From a virus (lineage: Duplodnaviria > Heunggongvirae > Uroviricota > Caudoviricetes): a DNA stretch of 25,564 nucleotides. A program made the translations under genes and the position numbers. Position 1 is the stretch's first letter; each line of letters starts with the position of its first letter. Below, one piece after another: positions 19,135 to 20,712 of the stretch. The notes beneath the pieces are model-generated. The model had not been told where the DNA came from, ran no database searches, and saw nothing but the letters and a program-made list of their open reading frames with translations. Where the stretch lies: the IMG/VR virus record IMGVR_UViG_2778261069_000008, one strand, 5' to 3'.

Positions 19135-20397
19135 ATGTCTTTAAACGATTCTAAAATCCGCAACTTAAAACCGTCTTCCCGTCCGGTAAAACACACTGAT
19201 TCACATGGTCTGTATCTGCTCGTCAGTCCGGGCGGTTCACGCATCTGGTATCTCAAATATCGCTTTAACGGCAAAGAATCCCGCGTCAGTCTCGGCGCTT
19301 ACCCTGCGGTCTCTCTTGCGCAGGCCAGAGAGCAGCGCGATGGTATCCGTAAGTTGCTGGCGCAGAATATCAACCCGGCGCAGCAGCGCGTGGCGGAAAA
19401 AGCGGCCTGTTCGCCTGAAAAGTGCTTTAAAGCGGTGGCCCTGGCCTGGCATAAGACCAATAAAAAATGGTCGGCGGATTATGCCGCCCGTATTCTCGCC
19501 AGTATGGAAAACCATATCTTCCCGGCGATTGGTCACTTACCCGTCACCACGCTGAAAACCCCGCATTTCACCGCATTACTGCGGGTGATTGAGGATAAAG
19601 GCTTCCTCGAAGTCGCGTCCCGAACGCGGCAGCAACTCAGCAACATCATGCGTTATGCCGTACAGCAGGAACTGATCGAAAACAATCCGGCGCAGTATCT
19701 GGATGGGGTTATTGCATCGCCGGTGAAAAATCACTATCCCGCTCTTCCGCTGGAGCGGCTGCCTGAATTTTTTAACCGTACTGGCGACTATCAGCAGGGC
19801 CGCGAGTTAACCCGGCTGGCGGTGGTGCTGACCCTGCATCTGTTCATCCGTTCCAGTGAACTGCGGTTTGCCCGCTGGAGCGAGATTGATTTCAGGAATA
19901 AAATCTGGACCATTCCCGCCACCCGCGAGGCGATAGATAAGGTGCGGTTTTCAGGCCGTGGCGCAAAAATGCGTACCCCGCATATTGTCCCACTGTCCCG
20001 GCAGGCTATCGCCATTCTGAAGCAGATACAGGATATTTCCGGTCATCTGGACCTGGTATTTCCCGGCGACCATAACCCGTACAGGCCGATGAGTGAAAAC
20101 ACCACAAACCGGGCGTTGCGCTTAATGGGGTATGACACGAAAACCGATGTCTGCGGACATGGATTCAGGACGATGGCCTGTACCGCCCTGGTGGAGTCAG
20201 AACTCTGGTCAGAAGATACCGTGGAACGGCAGATGAGCCATCAGGAGCGTAACGGCGTACGTGCGGCGTATGTACATAAAGCACAGCACCTTGAGGCCCG
20301 TAAGATGATGATGCAGTGGTGGTCGGATTATCTGGACGCAAACCGCGAGGAATATGTTGCACCGTATATTTATGCGCGACAGCATAAGGCGGCCTGA
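19135..20397 (+). CDS. int: P4-type tyrosine integrase of an island inserted next to asnT
   Basis: 420 aa from MSLNDSKIRNLKP (typical P4-like integrase N-terminus); catalytic region HGFRTMACTAL...RAAYVH; about 160 bp downstream of the tRNA-Asn 3' end. Confidence 0.85.
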   Translation: MSLNDSKIRNLKPSSRPVKHTDSHGLYLLVSPGGSRIWYLKYRFNGKESRVSLGAYPAVSLAQAREQRDGIRKLLAQNINPAQQRVAEKAACSPEKCFKAVALAWHKTNKKWSADYAARILASMENHIFPAIGHLPVTTLKTPHFTALLRVIEDKGFLEVASRTRQQLSNIMRYAVQQELIENNPAQYLDGVIASPVKNHYPALPLERLPEFFNRTGDYQQGRELTRLAVVLTLHLFIRSSELRFARWSEIDFRNKIWTIPATREAIDKVRFSGRGAKMRTPHIVPLSRQAIAILKQIQDISGHLDLVFPGDHNPYRPMSENTTNRALRLMGYDTKTDVCGHGFRTMACTALVESELWSEDTVERQMSHQERNGVRAAYVHKAQHLEARKMMMQWWSDYLDANREEYVAPYIYARQHKAA

Positions 20398-20429
20398 ACC
20401 AGAAATGACATAAATTATTAAAAATGGAA

Positions 20430-20464
20430 AAGCAGATCCTGATTGACTGTGATCTGCTTTTTTG
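20430..20464 (+). terminator. Rho-independent terminator after the P4-type integrase
   Basis: AGCAGATC...GATCTGCT stem followed by TTTTTTG. Confidence 0.6.
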
Positions 20465-20572
20465 TATTGGGAGGTATTTATTCCTGTTGTTTATAAAACA
20501 CCCAAAATTATTTGCCCCCAAATAATTCCGGATAAAAAATCATCAACAGGGATTCACCGGAACATGGCGATG

Positions 20573-20712
20573 CAAACCGTGAGGGATATGTTGCACCGTA
20601 TATTTATGCGCGGCAGAATAAGGCAGCCTGAATCAGAAATAGTTTAATTCTTTAAAAATGGAAAAGCAGATCCTGACTGATCGGGATCTGCTTTTTGTAT
20701 TGAGAGGTATTG
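20573..20712 (+). repeat. Imperfect direct repeat of the integrase 3' end plus terminator (second copy)
   Basis: About 140 bp at roughly 90 percent identity to 20325-20478; contains a remnant encoding ...EGYVAPYIYARQNKAA* and a second AGCAGATC/GATCTGCT terminator (about 20664-20697). Confidence 0.7.

Follow-up and report, generated by a model that had tools for sequence, protein, structure and literature searches.

Directly downstream of the asnT gene, on a 25,564-nucleotide stretch of DNA that is referred to here as the window, an intact integrase gene is followed by a second version of its own 3' end. This raises the question whether the repeat arose by duplication in place or whether it is what remains of a second, related element. 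A first-pass annotation had described the structure as a tandem duplication and had at the same time suspected the remnant of a second integrase or island in it. The source DNA is Escherichia albertii, as the mtfA-asnT segment (17961-18973) is 99.8% identical to that of the type strain NBRC 107761. The locus is defined by two features:

18898-18973, plus strand: asnT, tRNA-Asn (GTT), the integration target, downstream of mtfA (ARAGORN; Rfam tRNA, 72.6 bits)
19135-20397, plus strand: intact P4-type tyrosine integrase of 420 aa (Pfam domains, motifs in the translation), the integrase of X in the following

The integrase gene lies directly 3' of its target asnT and reads away from it, which is the arrangement of P4-type tRNA islands. 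Its product shows the domain layout of a P4-type island integrase with an arm-type N-terminal, a central and a tyrosine-recombinase catalytic domain (Arm-DNA-bind_3, PF13356; Phage_int_M, PF22022; Phage_integrase, PF00589; all above the Pfam cut-offs), and the motifs ELRFARWSEID, HGFRT and RAAYVH are readable in the translation. The same protein sequence appears in 56 blocks of the collection. As asnT is empty in most E. albertii genomes, with cbl coming next, everything to the right of asnT in the window is inserted DNA. Among its cargo genes are an integrase-like one (PF12834/PF12835; 21739-22641, minus strand), a PemK toxin-antitoxin pair and, beyond the window, a NACHT-like protein of 1468 aa and a Gabija-like pair (OLD-family ATPase and UvrD helicase). 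The asnT insertion of E. albertii is a defence-type island.

The first-pass annotation had suggested searching further right for a direct repeat of the asnT 3' end. With the last 14-24 nt of asnT as query and 1-2 mismatches allowed, no match was obtained from 18974 to 25564, and the same query revealed no asnT-derived attR in the approximately 16 kb that follow asnT in L116, L118 and L119, a stretch that ends before the island does. The idea of serial integration and decay at asnT is therefore not borne out by an attachment repeat, be it between the two copies, elsewhere in the window or in the approximately 16 kb to the right.

Some further observations concern the surroundings. Between asnT and the start codon of the integrase (19082-19112), 2.5 tandem copies of the 12-mer ATTTGGTGGTCAG are located, which are plausible arm-type integrase binding sites of an attL region. 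Positions 1-17764 of the window are occupied by a lambdoid prophage at tRNA-Ser(CGA) (17817-17906). The prophage has an integrase of its own (16739-17764) and an exonuclease gene, and four tRNA genes, for Gly, Thr, Lys and Met, are clustered on the minus strand at 2780-3089. In other E. albertii strains the serU site carries a different island of the AlpA/H-NS type. The type strain NBRC 107761 (L046) has an empty asnT followed by cbl, and an island that resembles Y, the right-hand member introduced below, is found there at a second tRNA-Asn 1.9 kb downstream (L046 1816-5241, with an apparently truncated integrase ORF). E. albertii therefore uses two neighbouring Asn-tRNA genes as island sites. 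In other E. albertii, too, cbl-nac and this second tRNA-Asn come after the empty asnT.

The repeat itself is composed as follows:

20338-20546, plus strand: first repeat unit (u1) with the tail of the live integrase, terminator and palindrome P1
20547-20568, plus strand: junction filler of 22 nt, CAGGGATTCACCGGAACATGGC, between u1 and u2
20569-20790, plus strand: second repeat unit (u2) with a dead integrase tail, terminator and P1
20569-20631, plus strand: integrase remnant of Y, the last 20 codons and the stop codon, without catalytic residues (translation; E. coli integrase matches)
20632-20790, plus strand: rest of u2, the post-coding part, continuous with the island cargo (fold; identity to L001 and L046)
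20418-20442 and 20652-20676, plus strand: stretch of 25 nt identical in both units, TTAAAAATGGAAAAGCAGATCCTGA (three-way alignment of u1, L097 and u2)

Each unit thus contains the last 20 integrase codons with the stop codon, where about 17 codons had been counted before, a predicted intrinsic terminator and the AT-rich palindrome P1. Alignment, shuffles and BLAST all confirmed a direct repeat at this place. The local alignment of u1 and u2 reached a score of 114 compared to 9.9 +/- 1.4 in shuffles (maximum of 17 in 500 shuffles) and the BLAST match has an E value of about 5e-45, so that the similarity is not due to chance. The offset from u1 to u2 amounts to 234 nt, with values of 233-244 further along owing to indels, and not to the 250 bp given originally. 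For the part of the repeat that had been described at first (20325-20478 compared to 20573-20712), the identity is high, although with 86.4% over 140 columns, one of them a gap, it lies below the proposed 90%. Likewise, a stretch of about 140-150 bp is indeed repeated, but the similarity runs approximately 70 nt further, through the AT-rich palindrome. Over the complete units (20338-20546 and 20572-20790) the identity is 77.3% in 220 columns, and it amounts to 91.7% (55/60) for the integrase tails (20338-20397 and 20572-20631), 82.7% from the stop codon through the terminator, and 64.8% past the terminator and through P1 (20479-20546 and 20712-20790). The coding tail is the best-conserved part, and therefore the similarity is not limited to the terminator hairpin. 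The first-pass annotation was also right in that the repeat is not a tRNA-derived attachment repeat.

Downstream of the stop codons, four elements were assigned:

20424-20465, plus strand: terminator hairpin of u1, weakened (fold of -16.9 kcal/mol, z = -5.4)
20661-20696, plus strand: terminator hairpin of u2, intact (fold of -23.6 kcal/mol, z = -8.2)
20502-20531, plus strand: P1 palindrome of u1, TTTGcccCAAA type (alignment of relatives)
20748-20773, plus strand: P1 palindrome of u2, TTCACCGGTGAA type (alignment of relatives)

The predicted terminators show what is expected of intrinsic terminators, namely a stable G+C-rich hairpin, a U tract and compensatory changes in the stem; in the relatives L008, L011 and L020 both stem arms change together. 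As in known Rho-independent terminators, including bidirectional ones, the hairpin of each unit lies between an A run and a T run, and compensatory stem changes are found among the relatives of the window module. The window differs only in that the weaker hairpin of the two is the one directly behind the live integrase. A simple scan for promoters and terminators gave counts near the shuffle expectation, and the two main hairpins escaped it owing to a mismatch or a long loop in their stems.

The dyad symmetry of P1 is kept among the relatives with 92.3% of the cells paired and six pairs that change on both sides. This covariation score was reached by 0 of 500 shuffles, and sliding the partner by 1-3 columns as a control left 34-46% paired. 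In both window copies the outer stem of P1 is broken. P1 could form a hairpin or be bound by a dimeric protein. Its arms, AAAATTATT..AATAATTTT with 15-17 bp, are conserved with compensatory changes across about ten genera. Approximately 70 nt past P1 a second, similar palindrome (P2, 20815-20845) was observed, with ATCAATA repeats between the two (segment 20734-20850 of the window). In an Rfam search of 18800-21500 at E <= 1 only asnT was significant; the matches over the repeat reached 14-24 bits compared to gathering scores of 50-100 and hence correspond to no described RNA family.

The relatives show how the region is usually built. A scan of one genome per species yielded 80 loci encoding relatives of the integrase, and in the 23 closest of them, from about ten genera (Escherichia, Tatumella, Atlantibacter, Phytobacter, Klebsiella, Pantoea, Trabulsiella, Citrobacter and others), the integrase tail and the module downstream of it were present in a single copy in every case. 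Altogether, one copy of the module was found in related islands of more than 20 other species. The conserved module consists of the terminator, P1, the ATCAATA repeats and the second similar palindrome. In E. coli the same module is also located 3' of unrelated P4-type integrases at aspV and lysV, where the homology starts exactly at GCCTGA, the asnT-type stop codon. Since the module stands behind different integrases at aspV, lysV and asnT, integrase modules must have been exchanged on a shared backbone. The module was absent from the phage collection and gave one weak match only in the plasmid collection; it is a backbone element of a chromosomal island family. At the aspV locus (L114, E. 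coli 05-3629) and the lysV locus (L115, E. coli MFDS1022581), the terminator, P1 and the backbone with the PF12835 gene are located beside type VI secretion genes.

Compared with these relatives, u1 and u2 belong to different allele lineages. The nearest nucleotide relative of the X integrase is L003 (E. coli E7-1N7) with 87-93% identity, and its individual segments are closest either to L003 or to L007 with 92.7%, about 87% and 91.1%. The P1 palindrome of u1 is of the type TTTG(G/C)CCCCAAA as in L002, L003 and L007, whereas that of u2 is of the TTCACCnGTGAA type as in L001 and L046. Past the terminator, u2 shares 88.5% with the single-copy modules of L001 (E. coli Z1323HEC0462) and L046 and only about 60-65% with u1, while the corresponding part of u1 lacks 12 nt and reaches no more than 60-65% with any relative. 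The cargo following u2 (20791-22700) is closest to L046 as well, with 88.8% for the segment 20791-21350 and 93.6%. In contrast to this, the coding tails of u1, u2 and L003 form one subclade, the DANRE subclade, with 92-95% identity, and therefore the signal for two lineages originates mainly from the 150 nt after the stop codon.

These data bear on the possibility of a true tandem duplication in place, in which a 234-nt segment would have been doubled by slippage or unequal crossing-over and the copies would then have diverged by mutation. The perfect head-to-tail layout with its period of 234 nt would agree with such an event, and so would the coding tails, which are 92% identical and share the DANRE subclade with L003. 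However, the copies are not each other's closest relatives: past the terminator they share approximately 60-65%, although u2 reaches 88.5% with single copies from another species, and at the joint they are separated by 22 nt of non-homologous filler. The divergence between the units would moreover have needed time. At least 21 loci of E. albertii contain both units with a difference of 0-1 bases, among them those of the complete genomes CP099910.1, CP043262.1, CP117570.1, CP117643.1 and CP099883.1, and they are nearly invariant even where the cargo of the strains differs by 41-129 substitutions. Since the units are invariant among strains with divergent cargo, the difference of more than 20% between u1 and u2 was not accumulated in place. 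A duplication in place is accordingly regarded as very improbable. Judged from the alignments, the copies would rather have come from two islands that had already diverged. The term tandem duplication therefore describes the layout correctly and is misleading with respect to the origin, as the copies are not sister sequences, while the suspicion that the second copy is the remnant of a second related integrase or island agrees well with the affinity of u2 to L001 and L046.

The integrase part of u2 points in the same direction. All that the remnant encodes is ANREGYVAPYIYARQNKAA*, a segment C-terminal to the catalytic tyrosine of the RAAY motif, and it differs in only one or two residues from known integrase tails. 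It matches the annotated 3' ends of integrases in 530 E. coli genomes with up to 88%, and the homology of these integrases to u2 begins at 20569 at the earliest. A second, truncated integrase of the asnT type (20569-20631) is hence located distal to the first one. A full-length parent of this tail, which would be an integrase ending in ...GCGCGGCAGAATAAGGCAGCCTGAATCAGAAATAGTTTAATTC, was not found among 5,426 E. coli genomes (best match 88%), nor did two exact-pattern scans of metagenome contigs return one. For annotation, 20569-20631 should be recorded as an integrase fragment and not as a gene. An overlapping ORF at 20462-20647 was rejected as a gene, as it shows no Pfam match and its frame differs from that of the integrase tail.

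At the joint, the filler departs from CGGATTATCTGGA, a stretch that is nearly invariant in all 23 relatives. No other copy of the filler with up to 4 mismatches was found in the window or in the loci L001-L083. A distant BLAST search with 20440-20575 against the 5,426 E. coli genomes gave one weak match only, 70.8% to the module of L003 itself, and thus yielded no source for the unusually diverged post-terminator part of u1.

The comparison of the strains shows that the two-unit arrangement is fixed in one island lineage of E. albertii. An assembly or scaffolding artefact in the window can practically be dismissed: short direct repeats can be mis-assembled in general and nothing specific points to it here, but the structure is identical in 21 or more independent assemblies, five of them complete genomes, and copies that differ by more than 20% are easily told apart by the reads. 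A small slippage polymorphism inside the repeat was observed in L085 and L095 (E. albertii GCA_027566275.1), in which the 6 nt TTGTTT are deleted from the T-rich stretch of u2 after the terminator (approximately 20715-20720).

The same island with a single unit was detected in one locus, L097, on the metagenome contig ERZ27259769. This unit is an exact chimera: its sequence equals that of u1 as far as the left terminator arm and that of u2 from the loop on, with the crossover inside the 25-nt stretch that is identical in both units. Because the adjacent 1.85 kb differ from the window by 0-1 bases, L097 is nested among the two-copy strains. The simplest reading of this pattern is that L097 arose by a deletion between the direct repeats. 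As the contig was assembled from a metagenome, the single copy could also be an assembly error. Altogether, the 234-nt direct repeat is a site of length polymorphism with either two copies or one chimeric copy.

The order of events could in principle be reversed, with the single copy of the L097 type being ancestral and the 234 nt from the terminator loop of u1 to the left terminator arm of u2 being a later foreign insertion. Formally, the arrangement A-B-A'-B' can be read as A-[B-A']-B', and the integrase of L097 shows 6 mismatches to the window compared to 2-5 for the other loci. On the other hand, the inserted DNA would be a circularly permuted unit consisting of the post-terminator half, the filler and the integrase tail, for which no donor is known, and L097 lies within the diversity of the two-copy strains, with its 0-1 mismatches in 1.85 kb compared to 41-129 for the two-copy loci L089 and L101. 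Furthermore, a deletion between direct repeats is the simpler event, and therefore the reversed polarity is considered unlikely.

Taken together, we assume with a probability of roughly 0.7 that the repeat is a scar left by recombination, at which two tRNA-integrated islands of one family, diverged from each other, were joined. The member on the left, X, would have contributed the asnT-proximal DNA with the intact P4-type integrase, the terminator and P1, and would break off approximately 150 nt after the integrase stop codon, followed by the 22-nt filler. The right member, Y, would start inside its own integrase gene, at 63 nt from the stop codon and with the rest of that gene deleted, and continue with the terminator, P1 and the cargo (PF12835 gene, PemK pair, NACHT-like gene and Gabija-like pair). 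The fusion of X and Y was probably illegitimate. Two routes could have led there. Either X would have inserted at asnT next to an already resident Y, after which the DNA from behind P1 of X into the integrase of Y would have been deleted, or the integrase end of Y would have been replaced in one step, through homology on the left side and illegitimate joining on the right. Both routes give the same structure; serial integration followed by deletion is plausible. The Y remnant presumably has no function of its own and represents a neutral scar, whose main effect would be to provide a direct repeat for homologous recombination or replication slippage to collapse. The product of such a collapse would be a seamless hybrid of X integrase and Y cargo such as L097.

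Such a scar is ordinary and reveals no new mechanism or function. Nonetheless, it dates and orders events at the asnT hotspot of E. albertii, where the integrase module of one lineage was apparently grafted onto the cargo of the other, and the graft is recognisable by a dead integrase tail of 63 nt. It would thus provide a worked example of the exchange of island integrases on a shared backbone. A literature search found no paper on the E. albertii asnT island or the scar.

From tandem arrays of islands or prophages at one tRNA gene it is known that the element nearest to the tRNA is the later arrival and that the array keeps the tRNA-derived att repeat as well as both sets of cargo. The window is similar in that a second related integrase is located distal to the first, but between the elements the filler of 22 nt takes the place of an att repeat and only approximately 150 nt of the proximal element are left after its integrase. 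A different kind of duplicated 3' end is created by e14 in icd and by phages in tRNA or ssrA genes, where the element supplies a substitute 3' end and the displaced original end becomes a dead fragment downstream. In these cases the two ends are kept apart by the whole element with its integrase and att sites, and what is duplicated is the att overlap. The window resembles them in layout only, with an intact gene followed by a slightly different dead 3' end, whereas approximately 170 nt without a gene lie between the ends and the joint contains no att-like sequence. The closest counterparts are mosaic tRNA islands with P4-type integrases in E. coli such as GI-pheV, in which the integrase adjoins the tRNA and the cargo is modular; such islands evolve as modules are inserted, deleted and recombined, they often lack attR, and remnants of genes are common in them (PMC11537424). 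With its backbone module, which follows different integrases at aspV, lysV and asnT, the window fits this pattern, and it differs by the fine-scale joint just after the integrase that keeps the 63-nt tail of the displaced integrase.

Alternatively, the second copy could have been kept for a function, either as a back-up terminator that insulates the cargo from read-through of the integrase gene or as a second P1 site for a protein or a hairpin. Such a role would be favoured by the weakened terminator of u1 (-16.9 kcal/mol) next to the intact one of u2 (-23.6 kcal/mol), by the conservation of the module across genera with compensatory changes in the terminator and covariation in P1, and by the unchanged two-copy form in many strains. 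However, every relative has one copy only, as has the L097 form, which is apparently viable, and the outer P1 stem is broken in both copies of the window. Persistence among nearly identical strains is also expected of a neutral scar, so that a selected second copy appears quite improbable.

Apart from the scar, the module itself may act in cis as a functional cassette within an island backbone that is widespread in enterobacteria, and may be the preferred crossover point for swapping the integrases of asnT, aspV and lysV. This proposal is tentative and we rather doubt it. It would include the bidirectional terminator, P1 and P2 with their compensatory changes, the ATCAATA repeats and the arrays of the 9-mer CTGCRCCAG. 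If it held true, the window would show an integrase swap at the stage of the illegitimate join and L097 the seamless product after homologous resolution.

The 9-mer CTGCRCCAG occurs 11 times in the window compared to 0.5 expected, a number reached in 0 of 100 shuffles. Nine of the copies are clustered around the PF12835 integrase-like gene (20968-23332) in opposed arrays, six on the plus strand (20968-22052) and three on the minus strand (22958-23332), and a stretch rich in this 9-mer is also conserved in related islands just after the module downstream of the integrase. The copies may be protein-binding sites. A hydrophobic ORF of 42 codons at 21015-21143, which was called as a gene in one assembly, was rejected, as it is interrupted by stops and frameshifts in the relatives; the conservation in this region is probably not protein-coding. 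Finally, the 15-mer CGTTACGCAGTAACG or its complement CGTTACTGCGTAACG is present in four copies at 21286, 21322, 21631 and 21696, which bracket an ORF of 95 aa (21356-21643, no Pfam match) adjoining the PF12835 gene and look like operators or recombinase sites.
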